Counted from the stretch's first letter, positions 5,405-58,447 are shown. The stretch: DNA of 64,000 nt from Candidatus Saccharimonadales bacterium (GCA_049521895.1 JBEKOJ010000001.1:290717-354716); one strand, 5' to 3'. Program-made: numbers and translations. The notes: generated from the letters alone by a model not told the origin.

Positions 5405-5428
5405 GACACCTTTTCGGTAAAAGGTGTC
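5405..5428. other. Perfect 10-bp hairpin
   Basis: GACACCTTTT-cggt-AAAAGGTGTC, flanked on both sides by AGTTTGG. Confidence 0.6.
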
Positions 5429-5490
5429 AAAAGTTTGGTACTTTCCAAAGTAGACCTAAGATTTCTGAAAGAAATCCAGATTTTTCAATT

Positions 5491-5517
5491 CTTCCGGCCC
5501 CGCACCTTTTGCAGGCG
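5491..5517 (+). repeat. Degenerate terminal copy of the cassette-junction repeat (R6)
   Basis: cttCCGGCCccGCaCCTTTTGcAGgCG aligns to CTAACCGGCCGCCCCTTTTGAGCG with about 19 matched positions and 4 inserted nt. Confidence 0.45.
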
Positions 5518-5584
5518 CTTTCGCAATCTGATTACTTACTGCTACCGCCCTGAAAAGAAGCGGGACAAGCATAAATCCTTTGGG

Positions 5585-6778: not shown

Positions 6779-6822
6779 GATTCTCTTATTATAGTCCCGA
6801 TCTGAACCAGGCGCATCTTAAA

Positions 6823-6846
6823 AAATACTTAACAAGTCAAGTATTT
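6823..6846. promoter_or_regulatory. 24-bp palindrome, family site A
   Basis: AAATACTTAAC-AA-GTCAAGTATTT (1 mismatch), 45 bp upstream of the rarA start. Confidence 0.4.
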
Positions 6847-7068
6847 TGACGGGGGCCGCGAGCACCGTAGTTCGAAAAAGTTAACCGAGCCCCTAACTTT
6901 TATCCAGACTCGAGGCGAGCCTGAGCAGATGATGTGAAAAAGAGGCGCCCTTGGGTGCGAGGAATGTCTGACGAAGCTAGATTGTCGGGTGGCAATCTAG
7001 CGAGGAGTTCCGCAGCAAGCCTGTTTCTGACATCAGATGCGTCAAGTTAGCCGAATGTCTGGGAAAAG

Positions 7069-7977: not shown

Positions 7978-8255
7978 CCCGTTAGAGCCAGGAAACGCTT
8001 GTTCCTATTTTTTAGGTAGCGTTTACCCGTTCCTGTCTTTAGATACTTTTCTCTTGCGAAGGCGTCATTCGAGTTCATACAAGCTTCATAATATATCAGC
8101 TCGTATGGACCTCGAAATTTGGTGTAAGTGGACTTTCCTGATTGATGCTGGCTTAAGCGTTTCCGTAGGTCAGACGCGCATCCCGTGTATAGCCTGCCGT
8201 TTTCGGGATTGCGAAGAACATAAACGTAAGTCATACTGGCTCTAACGGGATTCAC
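7974..8255 (-). CDS. GIY-YIG nuclease-domain protein
   Basis: YVYVLRN...GRLYTGCASDLRKRLSQH matches the GIY-YIG/UPF0213 pattern. It has 4-nt overlaps with both neighbouring genes. Confidence 0.75.
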   Translation of the reverse strand: MNPVRASMTYVYVLRNPENGRLYTGCASDLRKRLSQHQSGKSTYTKFRGPYELIYYEACMNSNDAFAREKYLKTGTGKRYLKNRNKRFLALTG

Positions 8256-10378: not shown

Positions 10379-11125
10379 TTAGGCTTGGATGCGGTTGAAG
10401 CGGTTAACGGCAAAAGCCACGCAAACTACGAGCATGATAGTGATTACAACCAGGTCTTTGGCTAAGCCAAAGTGCGATTGGTGGATCATGGTATAACGCA
10501 AAGCATCAACACAATATGTCAATGGATTAACCTCAGACATAACGCGCAGAAACGTCGGCACATTGGTCAAGGGGTACAATGCGCCAGATAGAAAATATAG
10601 CGGGAAAATAATAAAGTTGTTGATGCCCTGAAACCCCTGAAAATCTTCCACGATACTAGCCAAGCCGGCGCCAAAACTAGTCAGCGCCAGGCAAAGCGCC
10701 AACATTACCAGGAAACTTACCGGAAAATAGACCCAGTTATATGGCCGAAAACCCAGGGCAATCGAAATTACCAGTACGAAAAGGCCTTGGAGCAACGAGA
10801 TTGTGGCGCCGCCTAGGGCATTACCCAGCAAGACACGCAAGCGTGAGACCGGCGCCACCAGCATCTCTTTTAAGAAGCCGAAGCGTTTATCGAATAGGAT
10901 TTGGATGCCCCAGAAGACACCAGAGAATAATATGGTTTGCACGATGATGCCCGGTACCAAAAATTGCAGGTAGTTTCCCTCTCCGGCTTTTTTATAAACC
11001 GAGCCCAAGCCGTAGCCCAGAGCCAGCAAGAACAGGATTGGCTGGCCGATGGCGCCCAACACCCGTGAACGGCTGCGTACGTAGCGCTTCATCTGCCGCA
11101 GCCAAAGAATGTAAACAGCATCCAC
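10379..11125 (-). CDS. ABC-2 type transporter permease
   Basis: 248 aa, about 6 TM. ABC-2 family layout, start/stop-coupled to the ATPase gene. Confidence 0.8.
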   Translation of the reverse strand: MDAVYILWLRQMKRYVRSRSRVLGAIGQPILFLLALGYGLGSVYKKAGEGNYLQFLVPGIIVQTILFSGVFWGIQILFDKRFGFLKEMLVAPVSRLRVLLGNALGGATISLLQGLFVLVISIALGFRPYNWVYFPVSFLVMLALCLALTSFGAGLASIVEDFQGFQGINNFIIFPLYFLSGALYPLTNVPTFLRVMSEVNPLTYCVDALRYTMIHQSHFGLAKDLVVITIMLVVCVAFAVNRFNRIQA

Positions 11126-25625: not shown

Positions 25626-26264
25626 TTATCCATTTACTTTATCAGCAAAAACTACGAGCCGGTTAGAGTAACTCTGCAGAGTCTCATTCCAAGTCCCTTC
25701 GCAAGTAATAAGAACGAGGTGTGCCTTTCCATCACTTGCACGAAAGACGTCTGAAGCGTCCTCACTACTACCATACGTCTGGACTTCGCGTACTATAAAA
25801 GTAGTAGTCGCCCCTTTGTCGTCCACAACGTATACGTTGTCCCCGTTTTGCAATTCATGCAGATTATCAAATACTGCTGGTATGTTATCTTCCCAGCCGT
25901 AGTGTCCATCAATGACTGCGTCCCCTTGTTCGCCGGGGCGCGGCCCCCCGTCGTACCAAGCGGCGTCGGCGGGACCTTTTGGTACACCTAGTGCACCCTG
26001 GGGTGTGAGGCCCACATAGTCTAGGGCGGCATCAACATTAATTTCTGGGATCTTGAGACGCACCGGAAACCCGGCAGTTGGTTCTGGTTGTTTGGATGGG
26101 GCAGTAGTCTTGGCGGCAAGCGTTGCCGATGCATTCTGGACCTTGCTTTTACTGCGGGTTGAGCTTATTAAAACAAGACAAAGAATAATTACAAGAGCAA
26201 GCGCCAACCCTATAGAAACTACTACTAATGGTGTTCGCTTTAATAAGGTTTTCGGTAAACCCAT
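25626..26264 (-). CDS. Sortase family transpeptidase
   Basis: N-terminal TM anchor, catalytic-region pattern GH...LVLITCEG...R (TLxTC-like). Confidence 0.8.
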   Translation of the reverse strand: MGLPKTLLKRTPLVVVSIGLALALVIILCLVLISSTRSKSKVQNASATLAAKTTAPSKQPEPTAGFPVRLKIPEINVDAALDYVGLTPQGALGVPKGPADAAWYDGGPRPGEQGDAVIDGHYGWEDNIPAVFDNLHELQNGDNVYVVDDKGATTTFIVREVQTYGSSEDASDVFRASDGKAHLVLITCEGTWNETLQSYSNRLVVFADKVNG

Positions 26265-26288: not shown

Positions 26289-27203
26289 CTAAATCGCTCG
26301 TCTTTTTCGAGCTATGAGCAGCGAGGCTAGGGCGACAACAAATCCGGCTGGAATGATGATGCTCCATAAGCTGCTATTGTCATTCTTGGGAGCAAGTCCG
26401 GTATTCGGCAATGTTGGCGAAGTGGTAGTGGTGCCAGTAGTAGTTGTCGCGCAAGTTGATACTTTAACGGTAGTCATGTTCAATGTAACCGCGCCATTTC
26501 TTGCCAGCAGTCTTCCGCTAACGTTCGAGCTGCCGTTATCGGCGATGGATGTTAAGGCCATGATGGTTCCTACAAAGGTAGAGCCCGTACCAAGTGTCGC
26601 GGAGCTGGTGACTTGCCAAAAGACATTGCAAGCCTGAGCACCATTAACAAGCCGTACAACGCTAGCCGATGCCGTGACGAGAGTGGAACTGGCCTGGAAA
26701 ATGAAAACTGCAGACGAGTTGCCCTGGCCATCGAGTGTCAGAGGGCTCGCAGCGGTCAGGTTAGCAGTTGAAGCGCCACCGAACGAATAAATACCAGCGG
26801 TTAGGGTTTGCCCGCCAAGCTGGTTGTCAGAACCACTAAGTACAGTAGCTGGTGTTCGTCCAGCAGCATCTAGATAAGCGGTTGTCAGGTCGTTTTTAGC
26901 TGTAGTCAGTAAGGCGGGATTGTCTACGGAACCTGTAGGACCGAAGGCATCTACGGCATATATCGTGCCCGTTACCTGGGCTGTCGTTAAGCCGATACCG
27001 GCGCCAGTTGCTGGACTCAGCCCAACATCTCCGGTAATAACAGAAGTGGGAACATTCGTAATGTTGGGGGTACCAGCTAAAACCGCGAAGCTGTTAGCTG
27101 TACCGAGACTTACCGTAGTCAGGGCCATGACTTGCCCGGTGAGACCAAGCACGAATGTAACGACCAGCCCAATTGCTATTGAATGCTTATTAAATATTTT
27201 CAT
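26289..27203 (-). CDS. Ice-binding-like (DUF3494) surface protein with LPNTG sorting signal
   Basis: FAVLAGTPNITNVPTSVITGDVGLSP is DUF3494-like. The C-terminus has LPNTG, a hydrophobic segment and an RKRR tail. Confidence 0.75.
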   Translation of the reverse strand: MKIFNKHSIAIGLVVTFVLGLTGQVMALTTVSLGTANSFAVLAGTPNITNVPTSVITGDVGLSPATGAGIGLTTAQVTGTIYAVDAFGPTGSVDNPALLTTAKNDLTTAYLDAAGRTPATVLSGSDNQLGGQTLTAGIYSFGGASTANLTAASPLTLDGQGNSSAVFIFQASSTLVTASASVVRLVNGAQACNVFWQVTSSATLGTGSTFVGTIMALTSIADNGSSNVSGRLLARNGAVTLNMTTVKVSTCATTTTGTTTTSPTLPNTGLAPKNDNSSLWSIIIPAGFVVALASLLIARKRRAI

Positions 27204-32787: not shown

Positions 32788-34041
32788 GGTTGCTGTCGCA
32801 ACACGCACTCATCATGCTCGATGCAAGCATCTGTGCGTGACTCCTTGGCGCCCGAACCTTCCATAATATATTACCATCCGATTTTCGGACTCGCCCTATA
32901 CTAGATTACAATTCACCCCCGTCGAAGAAGATTTAAACCAAGAAAAATGCCCCGCGTATCGTCGATACTTTGCGGGACACGCCGGATTGAGTACCGGAGC
33001 TCTTTCAAGCTAGTTGTCGTACCTGTCGAGTTCTTCCTTGACCGCCTCCCTTACTTGTTGTTCCAGCATCAGGCGCTCGCGGATCAGTTGGGTCTCGGAG
33101 CCAATTTCGCGAGCTCGTGCGTTGGCGAGCTCACGGGCGATCTGCTCGTTACTTTCAGCTGCTTCGATGGATGCCTCCACCGAGAGGCTTGACGCCAGCC
33201 GCAAGAGTCCCTTGACTCGCTCGATCTCCTCGTTGACCTCGGGCGTACGGTGGAGCTGCATAAGCTCCAGCAGACGGCCGTTGAGAATCGAGACCTCGTA
33301 AGAGACCTCGGACTTGCGTTCACCCACTCGTAGCTTGGCGAGCTTCTTTTCCGTCCGCTTGCGGCCGGCTTTGCCAACCTTTTTCACGAAGGGCTTGCCC
33401 CCTGCGTTGCGGACGTAGTAGAGAGCCTTGTAGCTCGAGAACTCGCCCCAGCAGTCCGAGACGGTGGTTGCCCCCTCGCCTTCCGCCAGAAACCGGCCGC
33501 TTTCCAGCATCCTTGGCGTAACAAGAGCGCCGCTCTCGATGGCGTGGGAGTAGCGCACCCTGTAGATCTCGATAGTGCCGTCTATCAGGAGAACCATCCC
33601 TGGAGGCACGTGTGCCTTAAGCCCGAGAACTTCCTGCGAGGCGGATGTCAGCAGAGAGGTGTCTACGGGCTCGCTACCAGATGCCTGGCAGGCGCCGCCG
33701 TCGCAGTTGGTGTTTCCGTCGTTGTAGATCCAGACTGAGTTGATGCCTTGGGGGCCACCGAAATGCCTGCGACCATTGCATAGAACGGCATGGGTGATGT
33801 CACCATCCCGTCCGCGCTCAATGTTGAACATGCGGATCTCTTGACCGCTCATCTTACTCCAATCACTAAAGGTACGAAAACTACTCATATTATAGCATAA
33901 GAATAATATTCGGTCAATTTAATCAAGTAGTGTCCAAGCCCGGCCGCCCTGTTGGCATGATTGGGGCAATATTAAAGCAAACCCGAAAATGAACTTGCTT
34001 TAATCCAAAATTGCAGTATTTTGCAGATACAAATTGGCACT
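32788..34041. mobile_element. Small GC-rich islet integrated at tRNA-Gln 3' end (no integrase; remnant or satellite)
   Basis: Bounded by DR1 and DR2. Similarity stops inside the T-loop, the classic tRNA-targeting crossover position. Carries one GC-rich ORF. Confidence 0.5.
33010..33888 (-). CDS. Hypothetical protein, GC-rich, C-terminal coiled coil
   Basis: 292-aa ORF with two shadow ORFs. Composition is visibly more GC-rich than its neighbours. No family recognised. Confidence 0.6.
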   Translation of the reverse strand: MSSFRTFSDWSKMSGQEIRMFNIERGRDGDITHAVLCNGRRHFGGPQGINSVWIYNDGNTNCDGGACQASGSEPVDTSLLTSASQEVLGLKAHVPPGMVLLIDGTIEIYRVRYSHAIESGALVTPRMLESGRFLAEGEGATTVSDCWGEFSSYKALYYVRNAGGKPFVKKVGKAGRKRTEKKLAKLRVGERKSEVSYEVSILNGRLLELMQLHRTPEVNEEIERVKGLLRLASSLSVEASIEAAESNEQIARELANARAREIGSETQLIRERLMLEQQVREAVKEELDRYDN

Positions 34042-34082
34042 ATGGTCACCTTTGGTGCACTGCTTGGCTGGGGAAGAGGGAT
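34042..34082. repeat. Direct repeat DR2 (tRNA-Gln 3' end plus 23-nt flank)
   Basis: Partner of DR1. Confidence 0.75.
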
Positions 34083-34138
34083 TCGAACCCCCGATCCTGG
34101 GACCAGAACCCAGTGCCTTACCACTTGGCCATTCCCCA
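34065..34138 (-). tRNA. tRNA-Gln (anticodon CTG)
   Basis: 74-nt manual cloverleaf: acceptor TGGGGAA/TTCCCCA, D arm GCCAAGTGGTAAGGC, anticodon arm CTGGG-TTCTGGT-CCCAG, T arm GGGGG-TTCGAAT-CCCTC. CCA is encoded. Confidence 0.9.
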
Positions 34139-35725: not shown

Positions 35726-37384
35726 ATGGCACTGGTTTATTTTTATGACGTAACGGAACTGGACAAAAAACAGTTAAGCGCTGCGCTTGATGGGACTGAC
35801 CACCATTATGAATATGTGACAGACAAAATTGTGCCGGCCAATTGTAACCCTGAAACCGAAGCGATATCTGTGTTTGTAAGCAGTAATGTTAGTCGTGAAG
35901 TGATTGAGGCGATGCCAAAACTCAGGCTCATTGCTTGTCGATCAACCGGCTTTAACAACATCGATCTCGCGGCCGCGCAAGAACACGACGTCGCCGTTGT
36001 CAACGTCCCTACGTACGGCGAAGCAACGGTTGCAGAATATGTCTTCACATTGTTGCTGGCCTTGCAGCGCAAATTGCCTGCTGTGCTCGAAACTGAAAAA
36101 GAACAATTCTCGCTTGATGACCTAATGGGTCGTGACCTGCAAGGCAAAGTCTTCGGTGTGATAGGAACAGGCCACATTGGACAGAAAGCTTTGAAAATTG
36201 CTGATGGTTTTTCGATGAAAACTATTGCTTATGATAGTTATCCAAAAGCTGAACTCCAAAATGAATACCATTTCCAGTACGTTGGATTAGATGAATTACT
36301 GGAGCAATCCGACGTAGTGTCACTCCACGTCCCCTACCTCCCTTCGACTCACCACCTGATGAACCGCGACCGGCTTAACAAAATGAAGCGTGGCGCCATT
36401 TTGGTCAATACGGCTCGTGGCGAGCTTGTCGATACAAACGCGCTTATCGAATTACTTGATAAGGGTCAGCTGGGGGGAGCCGCCATAGACGTCATTGAAG
36501 GCGAAGCGCTACTGAGTTATCACGAAGAAATGGCTCTCCTGCGGAGTGACACACTCCCCGAAGAGGTGTTGCGCCACAGTGTCGAAATAACCGTGCTGGA
36601 ACAAATGCCAAATGTTATAATCAGCCCCCATAATGCCTTTAATACGGTCGAGGCAATTGCTCGTATAAATCAAACTACCGCCAAGAATATCATCGATTTT
36701 TGGTCTGGGAATATACCTAACAAAGTTGTGCCGGCGAAACGAGCCTTTGGAAAATTATTGATAGTTCGTCATACCGAATCGGAGTGGAATGCGACCGGAC
36801 GATGGACCGGTATCACCGATGTTCACTTAAGCGAAAAAGGCTTCAAAGAGTCAGCCATGTTGGGACTAGCCCTCAAAAAATCGGATATCCATATCGATCT
36901 TGCTTACTGTTCTGAGCAGATTCGGACACGTGAAACGCTAGAAGCTATGTTGGATACGTCACAGCAATTTGAAGTGGACATCGTCGCCAGTAACGCGCTT
37001 GATGAACGAGACTATGGAGAATATACCGGCCGGAATAAATGGGAGGTAAAAGAACTCATTGGCGAAGAGGCGTTCAATCAGATCCGTCGCGGCTGGGATG
37101 TACCAGTACCTGGCGGCGAAACCCTCAAAATGGTATATGAGCGTGTTGTTCCTTTTTATACTGGAACCGTCCTGCCGCGCTTGCGGGACGGCAAAAACAT
37201 CTTGATTGTGGCTAGCGGCAATAGCCTCAGAGCACTTATGAAATATCTAGAATCTATCAGCGACAAAGACGTCAGCCAACTGGAAATGCTCTTCGATCAA
37301 ATTATTGTGTACGACATCTCAGCCGATGGCTTACGCGCAGGTTCATCGGTTGTCCAAGTTGATAGCACGCCGCCTCACGCCTAG
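35726..37384 (+). CDS. Fusion protein: D-isomer-specific 2-hydroxyacid dehydrogenase (N) + 2,3-BPG-dependent phosphoglycerate mutase / histidine phosphatase (C)
   Basis: The N-terminal part has GVIGTGHIGQKA, NTARGELVD and SPHNAF. From about nt 36750 the sequence LLIVRHTESEWNATGRWTG matches the RHGE(S/T)xWN dPGM signature. Confidence 0.8.
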   Translation: MALVYFYDVTELDKKQLSAALDGTDHHYEYVTDKIVPANCNPETEAISVFVSSNVSREVIEAMPKLRLIACRSTGFNNIDLAAAQEHDVAVVNVPTYGEATVAEYVFTLLLALQRKLPAVLETEKEQFSLDDLMGRDLQGKVFGVIGTGHIGQKALKIADGFSMKTIAYDSYPKAELQNEYHFQYVGLDELLEQSDVVSLHVPYLPSTHHLMNRDRLNKMKRGAILVNTARGELVDTNALIELLDKGQLGGAAIDVIEGEALLSYHEEMALLRSDTLPEEVLRHSVEITVLEQMPNVIISPHNAFNTVEAIARINQTTAKNIIDFWSGNIPNKVVPAKRAFGKLLIVRHTESEWNATGRWTGITDVHLSEKGFKESAMLGLALKKSDIHIDLAYCSEQIRTRETLEAMLDTSQQFEVDIVASNALDERDYGEYTGRNKWEVKELIGEEAFNQIRRGWDVPVPGGETLKMVYERVVPFYTGTVLPRLRDGKNILIVASGNSLRALMKYLESISDKDVSQLEMLFDQIIVYDISADGLRAGSSVVQVDSTPPHA

Positions 37385-42241: not shown

Positions 42242-42265
42242 AAATACTTAACAAGTTAAGTATTT
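42242..42265. promoter_or_regulatory. 24-bp palindrome, family site B
   Basis: Perfect AAATACTTAAC-AA-GTTAAGTATTT between convergent genes, overlapping the sodA stop codon. Confidence 0.45.
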
Positions 42266-46086: not shown

Positions 46087-46584
46087 TTACAGATTATGTT
46101 TCCTGATTTTCTTTAGGCCCAGCAATATCAATTTGCCTATGTCCTCATACTCGATTTTTTCCAGGGCTTCATTGGCTGGCAGCCATTCCAAACCTTTCAT
46201 CCATTTTTCGGGCCTGACTTTATCGGTATTGCCAAGTGCCTGCACCAGAAAGATCTCGGTGGTCATTAGCACCAGGCTACTGTCGCGGCGGTAGCGAAAA
46301 TTAATTTTACCCAACCAGTCCAAGACTTTCATCTCCTGCAGACCAACTTCTTCTCGAATCTCCCGCTGGGCGGTCTCACTGGCTTTTTCAGTCTCTTCTA
46401 TGTGGCCCTTGGGTATGGTCCAGCGACCCCGGGAATCCTGGATTAATAGAATATCAATAGTCGGACTACCCGCTGCCCGGCGAAAAATTATACCACCGGC
46501 GGTAGGCTCGCGCACAACTTCGTTGATGGCCGGCCGGCGGTGGACAAATTTACGAAACCCTTTGATGGGATTAGGCCGTTTCAT
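46087..46584 (-). CDS. NUDIX hydrolase
   Basis: Nudix box GHIEETEKASETAQREIREEVGL. Confidence 0.85.
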   Translation of the reverse strand: MKRPNPIKGFRKFVHRRPAINEVVREPTAGGIIFRRAAGSPTIDILLIQDSRGRWTIPKGHIEETEKASETAQREIREEVGLQEMKVLDWLGKINFRYRRDSSLVLMTTEIFLVQALGNTDKVRPEKWMKGLEWLPANEALEKIEYEDIGKLILLGLKKIRKHNL

Positions 46585-47563: not shown

Positions 47564-50476
47564 TTAACTTACAACTAGGCTAATTAGGCGGCCAGGCACA
47601 TAAATGGCTTTTTTGATAGTTCTGCCCTTTAGATATTCGGCCGCTTTCTCATCTGTTCTAGCGGCTTCTATGGCCGATTTTTCATCGATATCGGCCGGTA
47701 CCATAATCTCGGTGCGGACTTTGCCGTTGATCTGCACGGCTAAGGTTAGCGTCTCTTCTTTAACTAAAGATTCATCCCAATGCGGCCAATTGCTTATATG
47801 AACTGACTCCTCGTGACCTAAGTCCCGCCACATCTCTTCGGCGATGTGCGGCGCGAATGGTGCCAGCAGTTGCACCAAATTATTAATAACAAAAACCCAG
47901 GCCGGAGTTTTACTTACCCCCGGCTCACCCTTAAGTCGATAAAGCTCGTTTACGCCTGCCATCATGGCGGCAATCGCGGTATTGAAATCCAGTTTTTCTA
48001 GATCGTTGGTGACTTTTTTGATCATCCGGTGGGTAGCCGCGATTAATGCTACCTCGTCGATATCAGCCCGGGGCTCAGTCTTGGCTGCTGTGTATTCGTC
48101 AACCAGAGTCCACACACGCTCCAAAAAGCGCCGGGTACCGGCAATACCGCCCATGCTGTATGGCCCGCCTTGGTCGTAGGGGCCCATAAACATCAGATAT
48201 AGCCGCAAGCTGTCGGCGCCGTAACTTTTGACCTGTTCGTCCGGACTGACCACATTGCCGCGGGATTTGCTCATTTTTTGGCCATCCAGACCCAAAATTA
48301 TTCCCTGGTTGGTCAGTTTCTTGAACGGCTCGTCAAATGCCAGGCCGTAATTATCGTGCAAGAATTTGGTCACAAAACGGGCGTATAACAGATGCAGAAT
48401 AGCGTGTTCGATGCCGCCGATGTAGTGGTCAACTGGCGCCCACTTGTTAATGATGTCTTCGTCAAAAGGTGCTTTGTTGTTCTGATTGTCCAGGTAGCGC
48501 AAAAAATACCAGCTGCTGCACACAAAAGTATCCATGGTATCAGTCTCGCGCTTGGCCGGCTTGCCGCACTTAGGGCACTTGGTATTTACAAAATCTTTTC
48601 GGCTCTGCAGCGGTGATTGGCCGGAAAGTTCAAACTCCACGTCCTCGGGCAAGATTACCGGCAAATCCTCTTCTGGAACAGGTACGGTGCCGCAACCATC
48701 GCAATAAATAATTGGAATCGGCGTACCCCAGTAGCGCTGGCGGCTGATTAGCCAGTCTCGCAGCCGGTAGTTGGTTTGCTCTTTGGCGATTCCCTCTTTA
48801 ACCAGATTAGTAACGATTTTTTCGCGCGCTTCACTGCTGTTCAGTCCATCGTATTGGCCCGAATTTACCAGGACACCCTCGCCAACATAAGCTCCGGCTT
48901 CATACAGCTGACCATGTTTATAGGCTACTGCCGCGGCTTTAGCACGGTTGCACATCTCCAGCCAGTGGTTCACGCCTCCGCCTAGACGGATTATGCCTTC
49001 GCGTATCTTGCCCATCGACTGCCATTCAGGGTGGAATTTTTCATGGGCTTCAAGCTTCGTTGCTACCCCCGGGATAGCTTTTGCTACCGCTAAATAGCCT
49101 TGGCCGAATGATTTGCGGTTAATTTTTTTGAGGTCATTAAAATAATGTGAGTAGACCGGATCACCAAGCGGAATTAGTGCTTCAATATCTGTGATACCAG
49201 TTTCTTCAGCCAGCTCCCGCCGGGCGCACTGTTCCATCGTCTCATTTTTTGCACGGCCACCGCCCACTAAGCCTGTGCCTTTAGTCCAGCCGCTCAAACC
49301 AAGATATAAACCGGTCTTTGGATCATATGGAATAACAACCGCCCCTTCCACGTATTGCTCATCCAGCAGGGACTCGCCAAAATCTTGGGCGATAACCATT
49401 TTGATGGGCAGATCGAACTTTTTAGCAAACTGCCGGTCGCGTTCATCGTGGGCGGGCACGGCCATAATGGCCCCCGTGCCGTAGCCCATCAGCACATAAT
49501 CGGCTACCCAAATAGGGACTTTCTCTTTAGTGCCCGGGTTAATCGCGTAGGCGCCGGTGAATACTCCGGTTTTGTCCTTTTCACCCTCTTTGCGTTCCAG
49601 CTCGGTCTTAAAACTGGCTTTTTTGATGTAATCAACAACCTGGCTTTTCTGTTCTGGCGTTGCCAATTTTTCAGCCAGTGGATGCTCCGGAGCCAGCACT
49701 ATATAAGTTGCGCCAAATAGCGTATCCGGACGGGTAGTAAACACCTGGATCTTGTGCTTTTTGTCCTCGGTGGCAAAATCAATCAGCACGCCGCGGCTTC
49801 CGCCGATCCAGTTAATCTGCATGGTTTTGACGCGGGTCGGCCAATCGACTTTTTCTAAGTCTGTTAGCAGCCGTTTGGTATAGTCGGTGATCTTAAAAAA
49901 CCATTGCTCCATTTCTTTTTGGATGACTGGCGTACCGCAACGTTCACAACGGTTTTCATCGCCAACAACCTGTTCATTAGCCAATACTGTTTGGTCTTTG
50001 GGGCACCAGTTAACGACCGCTTTCGCCCGGTAAGTCAGTTTGTGCTTGTAAAGCTGCAAGAACAGCCACTGGTTCCAGTGGTAATAACCCGGGTCACAAG
50101 TTGATAGGGTGCGCGACCAATCGTAGCTGGCGCCAATTTGGCCTATTTGTTTGGTCATAGTAGCAATGTTCTGGTGAGTCCACTTGGCGGGCTGGATGCC
50201 GCGTTCTATAGCGGCATTCTCTGCCGGTAGCCCAAAAGCATCAAAGCCGATAGTCTGCAGCACATTCTGGCCTAACATTCGTCTAAATCGAGCGACTGTA
50301 TCGGTGGGCGCAAAGTTGTACCAATGGCCAACATGCAAATCGCCCGACGGATAGGGCAGCATTGGAATAATATAAAATTTGTCGGCCGTGCGGCCCATAT
50401 CAACCTTATATAAATTAGACTCTGCCCAAATCTTCTGCCACTTGGGCTCAATTTCCTGCGGATTATAACGCCTCAT
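47564..50476 (-). CDS. leuS: Leucine--tRNA ligase with embedded Nudix domain
   Basis: HVGH (HIGH-type) and KMSKS motifs plus a CP1 editing domain. An extra ~170 aa (aa ~363-532) contains a perfect Nudix box. Confidence 0.95.
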   Translation of the reverse strand: MRRYNPQEIEPKWQKIWAESNLYKVDMGRTADKFYIIPMLPYPSGDLHVGHWYNFAPTDTVARFRRMLGQNVLQTIGFDAFGLPAENAAIERGIQPAKWTHQNIATMTKQIGQIGASYDWSRTLSTCDPGYYHWNQWLFLQLYKHKLTYRAKAVVNWCPKDQTVLANEQVVGDENRCERCGTPVIQKEMEQWFFKITDYTKRLLTDLEKVDWPTRVKTMQINWIGGSRGVLIDFATEDKKHKIQVFTTRPDTLFGATYIVLAPEHPLAEKLATPEQKSQVVDYIKKASFKTELERKEGEKDKTGVFTGAYAINPGTKEKVPIWVADYVLMGYGTGAIMAVPAHDERDRQFAKKFDLPIKMVIAQDFGESLLDEQYVEGAVVIPYDPKTGLYLGLSGWTKGTGLVGGGRAKNETMEQCARRELAEETGITDIEALIPLGDPVYSHYFNDLKKINRKSFGQGYLAVAKAIPGVATKLEAHEKFHPEWQSMGKIREGIIRLGGGVNHWLEMCNRAKAAAVAYKHGQLYEAGAYVGEGVLVNSGQYDGLNSSEAREKIVTNLVKEGIAKEQTNYRLRDWLISRQRYWGTPIPIIYCDGCGTVPVPEEDLPVILPEDVEFELSGQSPLQSRKDFVNTKCPKCGKPAKRETDTMDTFVCSSWYFLRYLDNQNNKAPFDEDIINKWAPVDHYIGGIEHAILHLLYARFVTKFLHDNYGLAFDEPFKKLTNQGIILGLDGQKMSKSRGNVVSPDEQVKSYGADSLRLYLMFMGPYDQGGPYSMGGIAGTRRFLERVWTLVDEYTAAKTEPRADIDEVALIAATHRMIKKVTNDLEKLDFNTAIAAMMAGVNELYRLKGEPGVSKTPAWVFVINNLVQLLAPFAPHIAEEMWRDLGHEESVHISNWPHWDESLVKEETLTLAVQINGKVRTEIMVPADIDEKSAIEAARTDEKAAEYLKGRTIKKAIYVPGRLISLVVS

Positions 50477-51741: not shown

Positions 51742-53184
51742 CTATTTGTAATTATCCGGCCAATCGTTTTGCATTAGTAGCAAATCACCGGCTGCTACTA
51801 ATTTATCAAGATTGGTATAAAAATTAAGGGGGTCATCCTCTATAACCACTTGCCCTTTAAAATCGCCTAAGCCCTCTACGATGTCATCTGTCACGGAGTG
51901 TTTCATCAACACCACTAGATCTGGGGCGGCTTTGGCTATTTCGCTACCCAACTCCCGGTGAATTTTGCCGCTCTCTGCCCCCTGGTCAACCAGACCCGGC
52001 GTAACATAGATTTTACGCTTGGCGGGCAGGTTTTTAAGGAGTTCCAGACCGGCTTTCATGCCCTCGATGTTGCCGTTGTATGTGTCGTCGATTATCCAAG
52101 CGCCGGAGAGTTGGTAAGGCTTCATGCGGTGCTCAAATGCCGGCACCTTAGTAACACCCTTTTCAATCTGCCTTTCGCTTAGTCCAAGTCTGTCGGCCAG
52201 CACCGCCGCCATTGCCAAAGGCGCAACCTGGTGCTTGCCCAGCAGCCGGCTTTTTATCTGTAGCACTTTATCGCCTTTTTGTATCTTAAAACTTAGGCCA
52301 TCTAAGCTAACTTTGATGCCCTCTACGGTCCAATCTCCAGCTTTTTGGGAATTAAATAACAGATACCCAGGCTTAATAAATGATTTGACCCCGTCGGCCT
52401 CGGTATTTACATAAACATTTTTGCCACCAAGATAATCAGCCAAAGAAAAAATATCCTCACCGGCTTTTTGCAAAGTCTTGTATTTATCAAGGTGCGCCGG
52501 AGCCAAACCGGTAATAATGCCAATGTCGGGCTGGGTGATTTTTGTAAATCTTTTAATATCGCCGGGGGCGCCCTCGCCATATTCAATAATCAAAACGTCT
52601 TCATCGCCGCTCAGGCTCCTGGCAAAATTAGCGTGGCTAATGGCTACGTTTTTGTTGGCTGGGGTGGCCGCGACTTTTTTGCCTTCCGACAAAACCGCCA
52701 GCAATATCTCCTTCATGGTGGTTTTGCCGTAGCTGCCGGCAACCGCGATCTTAACAGCTTGGTGGCCAGCAAAGCCCTTCTTGGAGGCACGCACTCGGAC
52801 CAAGTGGTACGGTCTAATAATCAGCCAACGCCCAAGCACCAAGGGCACAACTACCAAATTAGCCCAAACTACTGGCGCGGATAGCACGAACAGCACCAAA
52901 AATATCAACTCAATAACCGCCATATGGATATTTCTCTGGAAGAGGTAGGCCGCAAAAACTAGTTGGGCCAGCATGCCTAGGCGCATGAAGGCCAAGAGCA
53001 GCCCTGCGGGCTTTGTAACAACCAGCTGTTTTCTATGCATTACGCGGCTAAAGTCATCTGTCCGTAACAGCCAATTCAGGTATGCCGCGACATCATATTC
53101 GCTGGCTTGCAGCATATAAACAACAGTTCGGCTAAAGCGCGGGCTGTATAGACTAAGTACACCTTTCATCCTCTTAGCCCTCAA
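51742..53184 (-). CDS. murF: Mur ligase family protein (MurF-like) with N-terminal TM segment
   Basis: AVAGSYGKTTMKE P-loop with Mur ligase middle and C domains. Adjacent to ddl. Confidence 0.75.
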   Translation of the reverse strand: MRAKRMKGVLSLYSPRFSRTVVYMLQASEYDVAAYLNWLLRTDDFSRVMHRKQLVVTKPAGLLLAFMRLGMLAQLVFAAYLFQRNIHMAVIELIFLVLFVLSAPVVWANLVVVPLVLGRWLIIRPYHLVRVRASKKGFAGHQAVKIAVAGSYGKTTMKEILLAVLSEGKKVAATPANKNVAISHANFARSLSGDEDVLIIEYGEGAPGDIKRFTKITQPDIGIITGLAPAHLDKYKTLQKAGEDIFSLADYLGGKNVYVNTEADGVKSFIKPGYLLFNSQKAGDWTVEGIKVSLDGLSFKIQKGDKVLQIKSRLLGKHQVAPLAMAAVLADRLGLSERQIEKGVTKVPAFEHRMKPYQLSGAWIIDDTYNGNIEGMKAGLELLKNLPAKRKIYVTPGLVDQGAESGKIHRELGSEIAKAAPDLVVLMKHSVTDDIVEGLGDFKGQVVIEDDPLNFYTNLDKLVAAGDLLLMQNDWPDNYK

Positions 53185-53995
53185 CTATAAAATCGGTTAT
53201 GAGCTCGGCTATTTGATGGGGCTGCTCGTGGTGTACAAAGTGTCCGGCGCCGGCAATCGGCACAAGCTCGGAATTAACGATAGCGGTGGCCAGCAGTTCG
53301 CCGTAGCTTGGCGGTGTCATTTTGTCAGAGCTGCCGTAAATTAGCAGCGTATGTTGCTTTAATTTGGCGGCATCGGCCTGTACGTCCTCGCCCACTACTT
53401 TGCGAAAAGTTTCTTCCAGCTGAGGCAAAAGCGTAGCATCAGAGCCAATAGATTTATAAAACCGCCCCTTGATTTTATTTCTAGCGCTACTTGGCAGAAA
53501 AAACGTCGCGGCTTTGCCGCTTTTTGCCGCTACGCTTAACAGTTTCTTTCGGGTTTGGCGCCGGTCGCGCACCCCAGCTGAAGCAATCAACACTAATTTT
53601 TCGGCCTTTAGCTTACCGCTGCTTAGGCCTTTGATAGCTATTGAGCCGCCGTTGGAATGGGCAATAATAGCACCGACCTTATCAACCCCGATTTTTTTCA
53701 GCCACGCGGCTATAAAATTGGCATAATCGTCCAGCCCCCACGCCGTATCTGGCGCCTGGGTGCCACCAAAACCCGGTAAGTCTAAGGTCAGAACTTCGTA
53801 TTTCCTCGGGATAATGTCAATTAACGGATCAAAGGTATCCCCTTTGTCGCCCCAGCCATGCAAAAACAATAAAACTTTACCCTCGCCGGTTTTTTGGTAG
53901 TTAGTCATCAGGCTGTTAACAACTACGTTCATGCTTAAAGTATAGCAAGATAAGGGGTTTGAGGGGTTCTTTTCCAAAGAACCAAATGTTTTCAC
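53174..53995 (-). CDS. Alpha/beta hydrolase
   Basis: LLFLHGWGD and nucleophile elbow AHSNGG. Confidence 0.75.
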   Translation of the reverse strand: MKTFGSLEKNPSNPLSCYTLSMNVVVNSLMTNYQKTGEGKVLLFLHGWGDKGDTFDPLIDIIPRKYEVLTLDLPGFGGTQAPDTAWGLDDYANFIAAWLKKIGVDKVGAIIAHSNGGSIAIKGLSSGKLKAEKLVLIASAGVRDRRQTRKKLLSVAAKSGKAATFFLPSSARNKIKGRFYKSIGSDATLLPQLEETFRKVVGEDVQADAAKLKQHTLLIYGSSDKMTPPSYGELLATAIVNSELVPIAGAGHFVHHEQPHQIAELITDFIVEG

Positions 53996-54179
53996 ACTTT
54001 ATAGCGTAAAGGTGTGACCAAAGCGCCGGGCTGCGTTTTTTCTTGATAAACTCACTGGTCAACAAGAACAACAGCCTCAGGAACTCGGTCCGTTGGTCCC
54101 TCAGACAGCCTTCGGGCTTAAAAGTTGTTTTGTTGACGTGAAGTTATCAGGAAAAAGCCGATGCCCGGACCCTTATAAA

Positions 54180-54203
54180 AAATACTTAACTTGTTAAGTA
54201 TTT
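54180..54203. promoter_or_regulatory. 24-bp palindrome, family site C
   Basis: Perfect AAATACTTAAC-TT-GTTAAGTATTT at the left edge of the GC-rich pyrF segment. Confidence 0.45.
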
Positions 54204-54223
54204 CTGTAGTTGGGCATGAAGAA

Positions 54224-54243
54224 GGCGGAGCTTTCGCTCCGCC
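54224..54243 (-). terminator. GC-rich hairpin downstream of pyrF
   Basis: GGCGGAGC-tttc-GCTCCGCC. On the minus strand it is followed by TTCTTCAT. Confidence 0.35.
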
Positions 54244-54414
54244 CTTGCCGGGTGTTTCCCGGGCTTTTGTCCGTTCTGACCGACGGACATCGGTTGGTGT
54301 TCTTTGATCACCCCTCTCGCCGTTCGACGTGCAATTTGCACTTCCACCCGGGCACCAGCCGGATGTGGATGCTCACAGTTGTACCTCGGATCTTAAAAGT
54401 CACTCTGTCTCCTC

Positions 54415-55320
54415 TCAGATCGTCGCGAGGACGGCCGTGATGTCATCATGCATCTTCTGGGTTGCAACGCGCGCCGTTTCTGCGAAGTTCGCTTCAGCCG
54501 AGGCGAAGATGATGCCGCGCGAGTTGTTAATGATCATGCCCCGCTTCTTGCTGTCGGCACCCGCCTTGACGGTTGCTTCCAGCTCGCCGCCCTGAGCCCC
54601 GTAACCGGGGATCAGGATGGGCATGTCGCCAACGATCTTGCGACCTTCCGCCAGCTCTTCGACGTACGTCGCTCCGAACACGACGGCGCAGTTGCCGTTG
54701 TAGTTCCAAGTCGTAGCGACGCGATGCGCGACGATCTGATAGAGCCGCTTGACCTTGATGCCCTCTCTGGCCTCGATGGACTTGATCATCTCCTCGCGAG
54801 TCCAGTCCGAGTGCTCGCAAAGCAAATCTTGGAACTCGCCCGCACCGGGATTGCTCGTTCGGACGAGCACGATGACGCCTTTGTCCTTCTGGTCGAGGAA
54901 CGGCTTCATCGCTTCCATGCCGAGGTACGGGTGCACCGTCACGGCGTCGGCGCCGAAGAACGTGAAATCCTCCAGCACATAGCCGTTGTTCGTGTTCCCG
55001 ATGTCGGCTTGCTTGGCATCGAGGATCACTGGGATCTCGGGGTAGTGCTCGTTGAGAAACGCGATCGTCTGCCGAAGCATCTCGAAGCCGTACGAACTGC
55101 TGTAGAACGCCAGGTTCGGCTTGTAGGCGCAAACCAGGTTGTGGGTCGCGTCGATGATCCGTTCGTTGAACTCGAGTTGCGCATCTCTGTGCGATGCGAC
55201 TGACTTCGGCAGCTTTGTGACATCGCTGTCGAGGCCGACGCAGACGAACTTGCCCTCGTCCCAGCGGGCATGGAGCAACTGCATGAAGTTGCGCTCCATC
55301 TCATCAACTCCTTGTCTCAT
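54415..55320 (-). CDS. pyrF: Orotidine 5'-phosphate decarboxylase, type 2
   Basis: About 300-aa type-2 layout: VCVGLD, ILDAKQADIGNT, DAVTVHPYLG. Strongly GC-rich, with several long shadow ORFs. Confidence 0.8.
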   Translation of the reverse strand: MRQGVDEMERNFMQLLHARWDEGKFVCVGLDSDVTKLPKSVASHRDAQLEFNERIIDATHNLVCAYKPNLAFYSSSYGFEMLRQTIAFLNEHYPEIPVILDAKQADIGNTNNGYVLEDFTFFGADAVTVHPYLGMEAMKPFLDQKDKGVIVLVRTSNPGAGEFQDLLCEHSDWTREEMIKSIEAREGIKVKRLYQIVAHRVATTWNYNGNCAVVFGATYVEELAEGRKIVGDMPILIPGYGAQGGELEATVKAGADSKKRGMIINNSRGIIFASAEANFAETARVATQKMHDDITAVLATI

Positions 55321-55497
55321 GGTCTAGCTTGTCCAGACCGGATTACTACTTGCCACCAAAAGCACTAACCCAGCCTGGGCAAATTGTTAAAGAACACCTG
55401 CAACGACTCCCGTTGCTTGCGCACATTATAAAAAAGTTTCCTAATAAATGAAAGTGGTAGTGATGAATTTGGGGCGGAATTCAAGCCCCGAGCTGGC

Positions 55498-56061
55498 TTA
55501 GCTTAATTCGAGTTTTTGTTGAATAACCGATATTAGCTCAGGAAATTCGAGTTTTTCCCTGGCTCCACCACCATAATGTCCTTCAGTGGTTGATTCCGTG
55601 TACTCTGTATTTAACTTCTTATGAACATATCTCGCCTCTTCAACGGGAATGTAAGGGTCATTGGTTGAGTGGAATTGGACTATCCATTTTTGATTGGCCT
55701 TAATCTTGTCCCATTGCCACGGGCGGTTGTAGTATCCACTTTTCTTTTCGTCTTCGTCATCCAGGTCTGTATGGCAGGCACCAACCAGTACAGAACCGTA
55801 GATTTTATTTTTTTCGGCGTAACGCATGGTTGCTACCGCTCCCGAGGAATGACCAATTAAAATAGTATTTTCATCAGCATGCAAAGTATCTTTCAGAAAA
55901 GGAATCCAATATTTTTCCCGAGCAAGAACATTGTCCGGCATCGTTTCAGCAATAACTACTAGCCCTTTTTGTTCGAGTGTGTGTTTGACGGAAGGAAACC
56001 AATGATCTGTGCCGGTTGCACCGCCATTGCCATGAATGATAATAATTTTAGGCTTCACCAC
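55498..56061 (-). CDS. Serine hydrolase family protein (YdeN/RBBP9-like alpha/beta hydrolase)
   Basis: IIIIHGNGG and GHSSGA. 187 aa. Confidence 0.65.
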   Translation of the reverse strand: MVKPKIIIIHGNGGATGTDHWFPSVKHTLEQKGLVVIAETMPDNVLAREKYWIPFLKDTLHADENTILIGHSSGAVATMRYAEKNKIYGSVLVGACHTDLDDEDEKKSGYYNRPWQWDKIKANQKWIVQFHSTNDPYIPVEEARYVHKKLNTEYTESTTEGHYGGGAREKLEFPELISVIQQKLELS

Positions 56062-56144
56062 AGCTATATGATAACAAAACAGCCAGAAATTCTGGTTTTG
56101 CCGCCGCGACGGAATTCAGGTCCTGGGTTGATATACTCAAATAA

Positions 56145-57260
56145 ATGGCTAGTCCAAAAGATACCGTCGCGCACCTGCTCTCATTTGCGGATATAAAAAT
56201 AAACGGTAGCCGTCCATTTGATATTCAGGTAAAAAATGAGCGTCTCTATAGGCGTGTTTTAGGCAATCCTCAGCTGGGGCTTGGCGAATCTTACATGGAT
56301 GGCTGGTGGGACGTGCAGCGGCTGGACCAATTGGCGGCAAAGTTATTTTCGGCTGACATCCAATCAAAGGTGCGTACCAGCCCAGGTATCATTAAAACAG
56401 TTGTTATCTCTAGCCTTTTGAACCGCCAGACAATTCGACGGGCTAAAAATAACGCCTCTAGGCATTACGATATCGGCAATGATCTTTATGAGCGCATGTT
56501 GGACAAGAATATGATATATAGCTGTGCTTATTGGAAAAATGCCACAAATCTGGACGATGCCCAGGATGCAAAACTAGAGTTAATCTGCCAGAAGCTCTAT
56601 CTTAAAAAGGGCATGTCTCTACTGGACGTTGGCTGCGGCTGGGGCGGTTTTGCTGTCTATGCTGCTAAAAATTACGGTGTCAAAGTCACTGGCATTACGC
56701 CAGCGAAAGAGCAAGTCAAGTTAGCAAGGGAACGGACTAAAAGCCTGCCGGTCACAATCCTGCAAAAAGATTACCGTGAAATAGATGGAAAGTTTGACCG
56801 CATCGTGTCTATAGGGATGCTCGAACATGTTGGCCCCAAAAACTACAAAGTCTTCTTTGAGCACTGCGAAAAAATGCTGAATGACAGTGGTATTATGCTG
56901 CACCACACTATCGGCAATAATCACTCGGCGAACAAAACAGATCCTTGGATCGACAAATACATATTTCCCGGCGGGGTTATACCTTCATTAGCGCAAATTA
57001 CCCGGGCGATAGAAGACAAACTAGTCATTGAGGATATTCACAATTTTGGCCCTTATTACGACAAAACCCTAATGGCCTGGCACAAAAACTTTGTTAAAAG
57101 CTACCCACAGCTCAAAGATAAGTACGACGCGCGTTTTTATCGCATGTGGAATTTTTATCTACTAACTTGTGCGGGGTTATTCAGGATACGCCGTATGCAG
57201 TTATGGCAAATAGTCATGCGTAAGATCGAAACCTCAGATACTTACAAAACCTTTCGATAA
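56145..57260 (+). CDS. cfa: Cyclopropane-fatty-acyl-phospholipid synthase family methyltransferase
   Basis: HYDIGNDLY, SAM motif LLDVGCGWGG, and the CFA synthase C-terminus. Confidence 0.85.
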   Translation: MASPKDTVAHLLSFADIKINGSRPFDIQVKNERLYRRVLGNPQLGLGESYMDGWWDVQRLDQLAAKLFSADIQSKVRTSPGIIKTVVISSLLNRQTIRRAKNNASRHYDIGNDLYERMLDKNMIYSCAYWKNATNLDDAQDAKLELICQKLYLKKGMSLLDVGCGWGGFAVYAAKNYGVKVTGITPAKEQVKLARERTKSLPVTILQKDYREIDGKFDRIVSIGMLEHVGPKNYKVFFEHCEKMLNDSGIMLHHTIGNNHSANKTDPWIDKYIFPGGVIPSLAQITRAIEDKLVIEDIHNFGPYYDKTLMAWHKNFVKSYPQLKDKYDARFYRMWNFYLLTCAGLFRIRRMQLWQIVMRKIETSDTYKTFR

Positions 57261-57308
57261 AACTTGGGGGCGGGATTCAGGGGTCGGAGGGCATGAGATA
57301 ATAGAAGA

Positions 57309-57770
57309 ATGCAAAAAGCACCGGATTTTAACCTGCTGGACCAAAACGGCAAAGCGCACACGCTGGGTGATTATAGCGGCAAGTGGCTGGTGCTTTATTT
57401 TTATCCCAAGGATGATACACCTGGCTGCACAACCGAAGCCTGCAGTTTTCGTGACGAGCGCGAACTGATAGCCCAGCTTGGCAACGCGGAAATTGTTGGT
57501 ATTAGCAAAGATTCCGTTGAATCCCACAAGAAATTCGCCGATAAATACAATCTGAACTTTCCTATCTTAAGCGACCCGGAGCATAAAACTATTGAAGCCT
57601 ACGATTCGTGGGGACCCAAGAAATTGGCGGGCCATGAATACCTGGGCACCAAGCGCAATACTTTTATCATTGACCCCGGTGGAAGCATTGCGAAGCAGTA
57701 CAAGGGTGTTGACCCAAAAACCCACGCCGCCGAAATTATCAACGACCTGAAAACCCTGCAGACTTCCTAA
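57309..57770 (+). CDS. bcp: Thiol peroxidase / peroxiredoxin Bcp
   Basis: FYPKDDTPGCTTEAC peroxidatic Cys motif. Confidence 0.9.
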   Translation: MQKAPDFNLLDQNGKAHTLGDYSGKWLVLYFYPKDDTPGCTTEACSFRDERELIAQLGNAEIVGISKDSVESHKKFADKYNLNFPILSDPEHKTIEAYDSWGPKKLAGHEYLGTKRNTFIIDPGGSIAKQYKGVDPKTHAAEIINDLKTLQTS

Positions 57771-58447
57771 TTTTTTAGGCCGTTGATTTCCGCGAGGGTG
57801 AGGTCGCGCCACTGGCCGGGTTTTAGGCTTTCTACGCCCAGTTTTCCGTATCTCGAACGATGGAGCCGGCGCGTATCCAGGCCGACGGCTTCCAGCATGC
57901 GTTTGACTTGGTGATTGCGGCCTTCGTGGATTGTCAGCTCAATTTTATTCTCGCTAAGCTTGCGGGTTTTAGCTGGAGCTGTCTTGCCATCTTCCAGCTC
58001 TACGCCATTACTTAACGTGTTAAGTATTTTTGAAGTTATTGTCCCCTGCACTTTTGCTTCATAGGTCTTGTCTACCTCAAAGCTGGGGTGCATCAGTTTA
58101 TGGGCCAGTTCGCCGTCGTTGGTCAGCAGCAACACCCCTGTTGTATCAAAGTCCAGACGCCCCACCGGTACTACCCGCTCAGGAATATCAATTAGATCAG
58201 TGACTTTGGGCCGATCCTGCGGATCGCTCAAGGTGGTTATGGTGCGATCTGGTTTATTGAGCAAAATATAACGCAGTCTTTGCGATTGTATTTTTCTGCC
58301 ATCTAGCTCAATAAGGTCATTTTCTGAAACCTCATCATTAAGCTGGCCGGGTTTGCCGTTAACTTTAACCCGTTCGGCTTGAATGAGCTTATCGGCTCCT
58401 CGCCTAGAGCTCACTCCCGCTCTAGCAAGATATGCGTTAAGTCTCAT
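57767..58447 (-). CDS. Pseudouridine synthase (RsuA/RluB family) with S4 domain
   Basis: N-terminal S4 (RLNAYLARAGVSSRR) and catalytic GRLDFDTTGVLLLTNDG. Confidence 0.85.
   Translation of the reverse strand: MRLNAYLARAGVSSRRGADKLIQAERVKVNGKPGQLNDEVSENDLIELDGRKIQSQRLRYILLNKPDRTITTLSDPQDRPKVTDLIDIPERVVPVGRLDFDTTGVLLLTNDGELAHKLMHPSFEVDKTYEAKVQGTITSKILNTLSNGVELEDGKTAPAKTRKLSENKIELTIHEGRNHQVKRMLEAVGLDTRRLHRSRYGKLGVESLKPGQWRDLTLAEINGLKN

Follow-up and report, generated by a model that had tools for sequence, protein, structure and literature searches.

How does a lone, GC-rich gene of pyrimidine biosynthesis come to stand in a mid-GC Saccharimonadia-like genome, and of what use is it there? The question is raised by a 64,000-nt stretch of DNA from Candidatus Saccharimonadales bacterium (GCA_049521895.1, JBEKOJ010000001.1:290717-354716), hereafter referred to as the window, in whose numbering positions are given unless a contig is named. 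The minus strand carries pyrF, encoding a type-2 orotidine-5'-monophosphate (OMP) decarboxylase, for which an initial annotation of the sequence had suggested horizontal acquisition, perhaps from the actinobacterial host lineage. Based on composition, synteny and a family of related loci, we propose that this orphan pyrF is likely the remnant of a pyrimidine cassette that roams among Patescibacteria, that it was inserted horizontally, and that its donor was not an actinobacterial host.

First, we evaluated the identity of the gene. The OMP decarboxylase open reading frame (ORF) spans 54415–55320 on the minus strand, and the public gene call together with homologue alignment places the start at 55299, giving a protein of 294 residues with the N-terminus MERNFMQ. 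As judged by a score of 210.3 bits against the whole-protein hidden Markov model (HMM) NCBIfam TIGR02127 pyrF_sub2 (cut-off 110.6), the assignment to type 2 made by the initial annotation is correct, and Pfam PF00215 (OMPdecase) is matched with 89 bits (4e-25; cut-off 27). In an alignment of 20 homologues, the columns of D24, K60, D94-x-K96-x-x-D99, T148-S149-N150, P231-G232, Q236-G237-G238 and R261 are invariant or nearly invariant, and an alignment with PDB entry 4mjz agrees with the assignment of the catalytic residues. In common with other type-2 OMP decarboxylases (TIGR02127; 4mjz, 3qw3/3qw4, 3r89), the protein contains the DxKxxD motif, the KPN lysine, TSN and the PGxGAQGG phosphate-binding motif, whereas it differs from the PDB relatives by a variable insert of ~20 residues (roughly 160–185), falls in a Patescibacteria-specific subclade, and is encoded without pyrE or another pyr gene in 64 kb. 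With all catalytic and phosphate-binding motifs present, the window PyrF is predicted to be catalytically intact and is probably an active OMP decarboxylase. An identical PyrF is annotated in a Candidatus Saccharimonadales metagenome-assembled genome (MAG) and is found on 24 contigs (up to 777 kb) from JGI, ENA and Logan assemblies.

The solitary position of the gene, already pointed out by the initial annotation, holds for the window. Of the 70 crude ORFs (~100 aa or longer), most were covered by Pfam scans combined with public Pfam calls, the scan leaving out five of 102–130 aa; no other pyr gene and no phosphoribosyltransferase (PRT) gene was identified in the 64 kb, and tblastn of the window with pyrD, pyrC and pyrE from the related cassettes described below returned no match.

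Second, we analyzed composition. The GC content of pyrF is 0.591, compared to 0.490 for the whole window, and the GC content at third codon positions (GC3) is 0.811, the highest among the 70 crude ORFs (mean 0.530, s.d. 0.091), corresponding to a z-score of 3.8 against the 56 ORFs of at least 150 aa. First and second positions (GC1 0.58, GC2 0.38) are both ordinary for the window. The composition changes sharply at both ends of the pyrF segment, and the tail downstream of the gene (54205–54414) is likewise GC-rich, with a computed fold of -89.6 kcal/mol compared with -66.3 ± 4.6 kcal/mol for shuffled sequences (z = -5.0). Seven shadow ORFs of 251, 201, 93, 88, 77, 76 and 62 aa overlap pyrF or the tail. 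The initial annotation had described a strongly GC-rich pyrF, at least four long shadow ORFs and a hairpin-bearing, GC-rich tail of ~200 bp, and had staked its reading on pyrF being a compositional outlier; all of this is borne out by the computed values. The interval that it assigned to the segment, 54205–55330, takes in pyrF and the tail but omits the promoter and leader of the same unit (55300–55453).

When these flanking parts are included, the GC-rich segment would represent a self-contained pyrimidine-operon cassette of ~1.25 kb (roughly 54215–55453), in which a sigma-70-type promoter is followed by a structured leader, pyrF, a spacer of 110 nt and a terminator module of three hairpins:

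55425–55453, minus strand: promoter-like element, with -35 TTTCAT (55453–55448), a 17-nt spacer and -10 TATAAT (55430–55425).
55300–55422, minus strand: structured 5' leader, with covariance-model matches in nine loci.
55416–55400, minus strand: leader hairpin P1.
55399–55385, minus strand: leader linker AGGUGUUCUUUAACA.
55378–55333, minus strand: leader P2, a long hairpin with loop UUGGUGGC and a G·G internal loop.
55327–55321, minus strand: CUAGACC, a possible alternative-pairing partner.
55313–55308, minus strand: Shine-Dalgarno (SD) sequence AAGGAG.
54415–55299, minus strand: pyrF, type-2 orotidine-5'-phosphate decarboxylase, 294 aa, with a TIGR02127 match and conserved motifs.
54305–54414, minus strand: GC-rich spacer of 110 nt with small hairpins, between the pyrF stop and the 3' module, where relatives have pyrE.
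54215–54304, minus strand: 3' module of the pyr operon, AAGAACACC, with three hairpins and a U-rich tail; conserved, with a match in L011.
54289–54269, minus strand: 3' module hairpin GUCCGU..ACGGAC.
54262–54248, minus strand: 3' module hairpin CCGGG..CCCGG.
54243–54224, minus strand: terminator-like hairpin GGCGGAGC-GAAA-GCUCCGCC with a U-rich tail.

The cassette would belong to a family whose members share the leader and mostly the terminator module, vary in pyr content, and are located at unrelated chromosomal positions in mid-GC Saccharimonadia-like genomes. Of the two closest PyrF homologues, both located in contexts other than that of the window, L011 (72% identical) has pyrF-pyrE after pilM/N/O-like genes, and L015 (74% identical) carries pyrD-pyrC-pyrF-pyrE. 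Among other close PyrF relatives, a pyrF-pyrE layout is seen in L017, L128, L129, the P0019 contig, L131 and L132, pyrD-pyrF-pyrE in L127, and pyrD-pyrC-pyrF in L130. Thus, pyrE lies directly downstream of pyrF in each of these loci except L130, which has no pyrE in the operon. The genomic contexts all differ, but L129 and the P0019 contig share theirs. Among the ten closest PyrF relatives examined, eight have pyrE directly downstream of pyrF; about half of the pyrF loci in the Candidate Phyla Radiation (CPR) have no pyrE within 10 kb. The pyrE position is filled by two different families of orotate phosphoribosyltransferase (OPRT), one in L127, L129 and L132 and the other in L011, L015, L017, L128 and L131; the two types of phosphoribosyltransferase in this position are recognizable by ‘KLHEKNPDAPLSPIYLNLR’ (JGI label UMP-synthase-like) and ‘HFVYxSGKHGPxYINMD’.

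Both ends of the operon are kept in the window copy, with only pyrF and the 110-nt spacer between them. At the 3' end, window positions 54224–54304 align with L011 positions 4503–4585, directly after the pyrE stop, with 88% identity over 83 nt (E 3e-22). The same module follows pyrE in L127, L128 and L132 and pyrF in L130, and its hairpins show compensatory changes between loci. At the 5' end, window positions 55333–55433 match sequence that precedes the first pyr gene of L011, L015 and L017. A block of the form TTTAC(G/C)/TTTCAT-17-(T)TTTATAAT occupies the same place in 7 of the 9 leader-bearing loci; a strict consensus promoter scan did not call the element at 55425–55453, and since the block is conserved and positioned directly before the leader, we infer that it is a promoter, with transcription predicted to begin at about 55418.

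The leader was analyzed using a covariance model built from four leaders (R1) and a rebuilt model (R2). Nine loci score 66–109 bits with R1 and 75–105 bits with R2, compared with at most 31 bits in antisense; five of the copies (L127, L128, L130, L131 and L132) were outside the training set, and in all nine loci the leader lies directly before the first pyr gene, be it pyrD or pyrF. The consensus consists of P1, an AGGUGUUCUUUrACA linker and a 46-nt P2 with a UUGGUGG loop, and in five loci the 3' arm of P2, GGUCUGG, would be able to pair instead with a downstream CYAGACC. In an alignment of nine related sequences fitted to the model, 95% of the cells are paired, compared with 24–49% in slid controls, and ten pairs show double changes, including 6 of the 7 P1 pairs; shuffled sequences never reached the observed values. 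The G·U pairs, and sense scores far above antisense, favour an RNA element.

A search with the rebuilt model over 1.13 Mb, including ~0.5 Mb of non-pyr Saccharimonadia loci and distant CPR pyrF loci, returned nothing beyond the nine loci except diverged copies in L025, a Patescibacteria MAG. There, a diverged form of the hairpin (CAGACCGGAUC...GACCCGGUCUG, with GACUGUGGUC and AGGAGCCCGCC-AUG after it) stands at 9920–9964 before pyrF and at 11041–11086 before the next gene, which encodes a hypothetical protein of 138 aa; the motif may control more than pyr genes. For the window region (E up to 10) and for four other loci (E up to 1), Rfam yielded nothing relevant, RF00515 included. The arrangement is similar to that of the Bacillus PyrR attenuators (RF00515) and to uridine triphosphate (UTP)-sensitive attenuation of Escherichia coli pyrBI and pyrE in that the promoter is separated from the first pyr gene by a structured 5' leader, which is conserved whichever pyr gene comes first and offers a possible alternative pairing of the 3' arm of the main hairpin. 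Unlike these systems, there is no terminator after the main hairpin, no evident leader peptide and no PyrR gene seen. Most likely, the leader would control operon expression in response to a pyrimidine-pathway signal, by way of an RNA-binding protein or a small ligand. To our knowledge, no riboswitch class is established for the pyrimidine pathway, and we found no paper on pyrF or pyrE in CPR, on pyr-associated RNA in Saccharibacteria, or on the cassette or its leader.

Third, we compared the insertion site with 80 metagenomic loci that encode relatives of the neighbouring Mur ligase (51–85% identity). The site lies within the following region:

53933–57766, no strand: variable slot between RluB (57767–58447) and abH (53174–53932), holding AhpC, CMAS, Ser_hydrolase and the pyrF cassette.

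In all but three of the 80 loci, abH is directly upstream of Mur, the exceptions being contigs that end at or beside Mur, and related loci of sufficient length also retain Ddl, LeuRS, NusB, NUDIX and RNase III. None of the 80 has pyrF at the abH-Mur-Ddl site. In L048, L059, L060 and L063 the pseudouridine synthase RluB abuts abH, the gap being only 25 nt in L048 (Mur 80% identical), and L049 (Mur 74% identical) has CMAS and an unrelated 503-aa secreted protein in this position. Because RluB abuts abH in four loci and L049 has other content, 53933–57766 is considered a variable slot; the sharply differing GC3 of its inserts (AhpC 0.56, CMAS 0.49, Ser_hydrolase 0.39, pyrF 0.81) points to several separate arrivals. 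Compared with the 80 loci, only the species of the window has pyrF and Ser_hydrolase in the slot, and the insertion anticipated by the initial annotation is thus borne out by synteny. The lineage of the window would have received a copy of the cassette in this hypervariable slot, which RluB borders on one side and the conserved abH-Mur-Ddl-LeuRS block on the other, after it had split from relatives with a Mur ligase ~80% identical.

The Ser_hydrolase gene beside pyrF (55498–56061, minus strand) is itself of note, with the second-lowest GC3 among the scanned window genes (0.39) and absence from all 80 related loci; its call is shortened to 109 aa in the strain-level contig L008 (2737–3066). Pfam scans and public calls identified no integrase or transposase in the slot, and the nearest tRNA gene, for tRNA-Ala, is ~750 nt beyond it. 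A phage vector was considered and rejected, because PyrF relatives on viral contigs are only 33–37% identical, and the single 18-mer match to the leader on a viral contig is located in a structural ORF and is not recognized by the covariance model.

As stated by the initial annotation, the pyrF segment abuts a recurring palindrome:

54180–54203, no strand: palindrome AAATACTTAAC-TT-GTTAAGTATTT, just beyond the 3' end of the cassette.

The window has four copies of its 22-nt core (6824–6845, 42243–42264, 54181–54202 and 58007–58028), compared to an expectation of 0 from 100 shuffles, with the general form AATACTTAAC-NN-GTTAAGTATT, often extended by runs of A and T. Copies are also present in L011, L017, L048, L052, L055, L059 and L127, mostly at gene 3' ends or in intergenic positions, and degenerate copies stand on both sides of the L011 cassette. 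The copy at 58007 falls within the coding sequence of RluB and specifies KILNxLSN; it is also conserved there in relatives, so that it may simply be coding sequence. The palindrome was rejected as a cassette end, given its many non-pyr sites and the copy inside RluB; since copies occur in related Saccharimonadia loci without pyr genes, it is a genome-wide element and not part of the cassette, and could act as a bidirectional terminator, operator or recombination hotspot. As a small unit of 1–4 genes with variable content, found in different places and bordered by a palindrome, the cassette bears a resemblance, and only a resemblance, to integron cassettes; in contrast to these, it has its own promoter and leader and lacks an integrase (IntI), and the palindrome that borders it is a genome-wide element which, with 22 nt, is much shorter than attC.

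Fourth, we examined the affiliation of PyrF. Among its best 120 homologues (55–100% identical), all that carry a source name are Patescibacteria or an unassigned ‘bacterium’, the named sources being mostly Saccharibacteria, with Uhrbacteria, Microgenomates, Minisyncoccia and Paceibacterota. Among GTDB representative genomes, 31 loci were obtained by scanning; the majority bear the label Patescibacteria, and the top match, at 62%, is from Saccharimonadales. Eight GTDB MAGs labelled Gammaproteobacteria or Bdellovibrionales are placed among Patescibacteria branches in the tree. In a neighbour-joining tree without support values, the window PyrF groups with L011, L015 and L017, the last a complete Saccharibacteria chromosome, with L128, L127 and L016 next out, in a clade that is mostly Saccharibacteria-labelled. 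Close homologues sit in differing genomic contexts, which points towards incongruence of gene and species trees, as far as can be read from a neighbour-joining gene tree only. The horizontal acquisition put forward by the initial annotation is supported by three observations: the unoccupied site in the syntenic relatives, cassette boundaries that recur elsewhere in unrelated contexts, and the composition. The donor pool would be Patescibacteria, most likely other, GC-richer Saccharimonadia, and the copy would have arrived without pyrE or lost it afterwards.

Several observations weigh against this proposal. (i) The phylogenetic analysis comprised a gene tree without support values, so that incongruence with a species tree is suggestive rather than formal. 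(ii) The insertion shows neither a mobility gene nor a target-site duplication or att site, the direct repeats being of chance level (9–13 nt). (iii) Neither the 110-nt spacer nor the rest of the interval between pyrF and abH contains a recognizable pyrE remnant, as judged by tblastn, local DNA alignment against shuffles and a pyrE HMM of 120 sequences. Because of this, the loss of pyrE is a comparative inference only, based on the position of pyrE directly after pyrF in eight of the ten closest relatives; L130 demonstrates that pyrE-less operons exist, and pyrE may simply lie elsewhere there. The absence of pyrE itself holds for the 64-kb window, and the OPRT homologues considered are the best 120 per type. 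(iv) All cassette members are GC3-rich though their PyrF proteins differ by 26–40%, a divergence for which recent transfer followed by amelioration does not predict GC3-richness, and a native high-GC context for the cassette was not found among the loci examined. A split pyrE match, with one part (KLH) in the spacer and the other (EKNPxxPLS) immediately upstream of abH, was considered separately and rejected as chance level at the DNA level.

With respect to the last point, all eight cassettes that could be compared with flanking genes form GC3 islands of 0.64–0.85 within contigs of 0.47–0.54 GC; in distant CPR lineages, the GC3 of pyrF follows genome GC. Pyrimidine-sparing composition was rejected as a cause, since C exceeds G in third positions and the purine content (0.50–0.53) equals background. 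It is possible that the anomaly results from repeated transfers out of a GC-richer pool, or from a process by which a cassette that is often exchanged retains a high GC3. More speculatively, and in our view unlikely, the leader could represent a new, Patescibacteria-specific class of pyrimidine-responsive RNA (riboswitch or protein target) that travels with a horizontally circulating pyr cassette, in which case the persistently high GC3 would reflect a gene pool partly decoupled from the host genomes.

Whatever the route of arrival, the enzyme needs a substrate. OMP, the only known substrate of PyrF, is produced by OPRT, and we know of no OMP importer. The window PyrF would be useful only if an unlinked OPRT supplied OMP, to which we give rather less than an even chance. 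A related and broader view, which we consider somewhat less likely than not, is that the lone PyrF is maintained as a working salvage step, fed with OMP by an unlinked OPRT, a promiscuous phosphoribosyltransferase or the host. It is consistent with an intact ORF that has all catalytic motifs, with the retention of promoter, leader and SD, with the L130 operon, which also lacks pyrE yet keeps pyrD and pyrC, and with the many CPR pyrF loci (about half) that have no pyrE nearby. The identical protein on 24 contigs might seem to add to this; because the contigs were chosen by exact protein identity, it is uninformative on selection. Set against it are the lack of any pyr or PRT gene within 64 kb, the want of a known importer, and a suggestive negative result: among the best 120 homologues listed per type, no OPRT of either cassette type comes from the roughly 770-kb contig, although at this depth genome-wide absence of pyrE is unproven. 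That the window pyrF is instead a recently orphaned, not yet decayed relic has, in our estimate, close to an even chance.

It is less plausible that no transfer took place, the pyr genes being ancestral in Saccharimonadia, rearranged and mostly lost, with GC3 held high by selection or biased gene conversion. The largely Saccharibacteria-labelled PyrF clade is compatible with vertical inheritance, as are the elevation of GC3 alone, without GC1 and GC2, and its persistence across the diverged proteins, which amelioration after old transfers does not predict; the context shared by L129 and the P0019 contig indicates some vertical transmission. The empty site in every one of the syntenic relatives, including the 25-nt RluB-abH junction in a locus with a Mur ligase 80% identical, argues against it, together with the widely varying GC3 of the neighbouring inserts, which marks the slot as a dumping ground, and cassette boundaries that are discrete and conserved in otherwise unrelated contexts. 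We consequently regard purely vertical descent as improbable, and gain, rather than many losses, as the probable direction of the event.

An origin in the actinobacterial host lineage, as the initial annotation had suggested, is already contradicted and has very little left in its favour. The type-2 class of OMP decarboxylases also occurs in Actinobacteria, and pyrF is a GC-rich gene of this class. However, the best 120 homologues, down to 55% identity, include no actinobacterial name, and neither do the GTDB hits; in the PDB, the best match is 4mjz with 147 bits, then 3qw3/3qw4 and 3r89, whereas 3v75, which we take to be a Streptomyces avermitilis structure, scores 66 bits; and the non-coding leader and terminator are common to other Saccharimonadia-like contigs. 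Finally, although the sharp composition switch at both ends might suggest a foreign GC-rich fragment joined into a Saccharimonadales contig in assembly or binning, this is refuted by the same junctions on the 24 independently assembled contigs, including those of 770–777 kb, with the gene order CMAS, Ser_hydrolase, pyrF, abH, Mur ligase, Ddl in 10 of 10 displayed places; because this order recurs on contigs from independent samples, a chimeric join is excluded for the Ser_hydrolase-pyrF-abH arrangement.

The window contains other features that fall outside the cassette. The leucyl-tRNA synthetase (47564–50476, minus strand) has a NUDIX domain at residues 378–447, directly after the editing domain (35 bits, above the cut-off), and a separate NUDIX gene (46087–46584) is located two genes downstream. 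Positions 1–8000 form a mosaic in which GC3-rich ORFs without a Pfam match (97–495, GC3 0.79; 1189–2016, GC3 0.72) lie next to low-GC ORFs, among them those for a reverse transcriptase (4198–5145, RVT_1, GC 0.38) and a glyoxalase, and this region may be another acquired gene set. A 292-aa ORF at 33010–33888 (minus strand), with GC3 of 0.71 and no Pfam match, is also a composition outlier and adjoins the gene for tRNA-Gln (34065–34138). At 35726–37384 (plus strand), a D-2-hydroxyacid dehydrogenase is fused to a histidine-phosphatase (PGM-like) domain, and a gene for an ice-binding-like surface protein (26289–27203, minus strand) adjoins a sortase gene (25626–26264, minus strand).

Returning to the proposed roaming cassette, the view of the initial annotation that Saccharibacteria lack de novo nucleotide synthesis is only a generalization; some Saccharimonadia have near-complete de novo nucleotide pathways (bioRxiv 10.64898/2026.09.16.751625), and 10 of 14 pyrimidine enzymes are present in another genome set (PMC7786006). 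Patescibacteria are reported to have received nucleotide-metabolism genes by horizontal transfer (PMC12455944). In keeping with the horizontally transferred metabolic genes and islets of Patescibacteria (PMC12455944) and with de novo Saccharimonadia (bioRxiv 10.64898/2026.09.16.751625), the present locus would be a case of an ultra-small genome of the epibiont type gaining a nucleotide-metabolism gene that is patchily distributed among relatives; it differs from the islets in that the gene is part of a well-delimited mini-cassette whose regulatory ends are conserved and which recurs in nine further loci, and in that a single pathway step is left here.

By itself, the gain of pyrF by a reduced genome is nothing unusual, and the interest of the locus lies in the modular cassette, the undescribed leader and the persistent GC3 anomaly. 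Pyrimidine biosynthesis in Saccharimonadia would be carried on a small modular cassette that is gained, trimmed and relocated between lineages, which would explain in concrete terms why the nucleotide autonomy reported for these epibionts is patchy. The leader offers a defined candidate regulatory RNA for the pyrimidine pathway, and the orphan pyrF would be a snapshot of pathway erosion, or of an unrecognized source of OMP.

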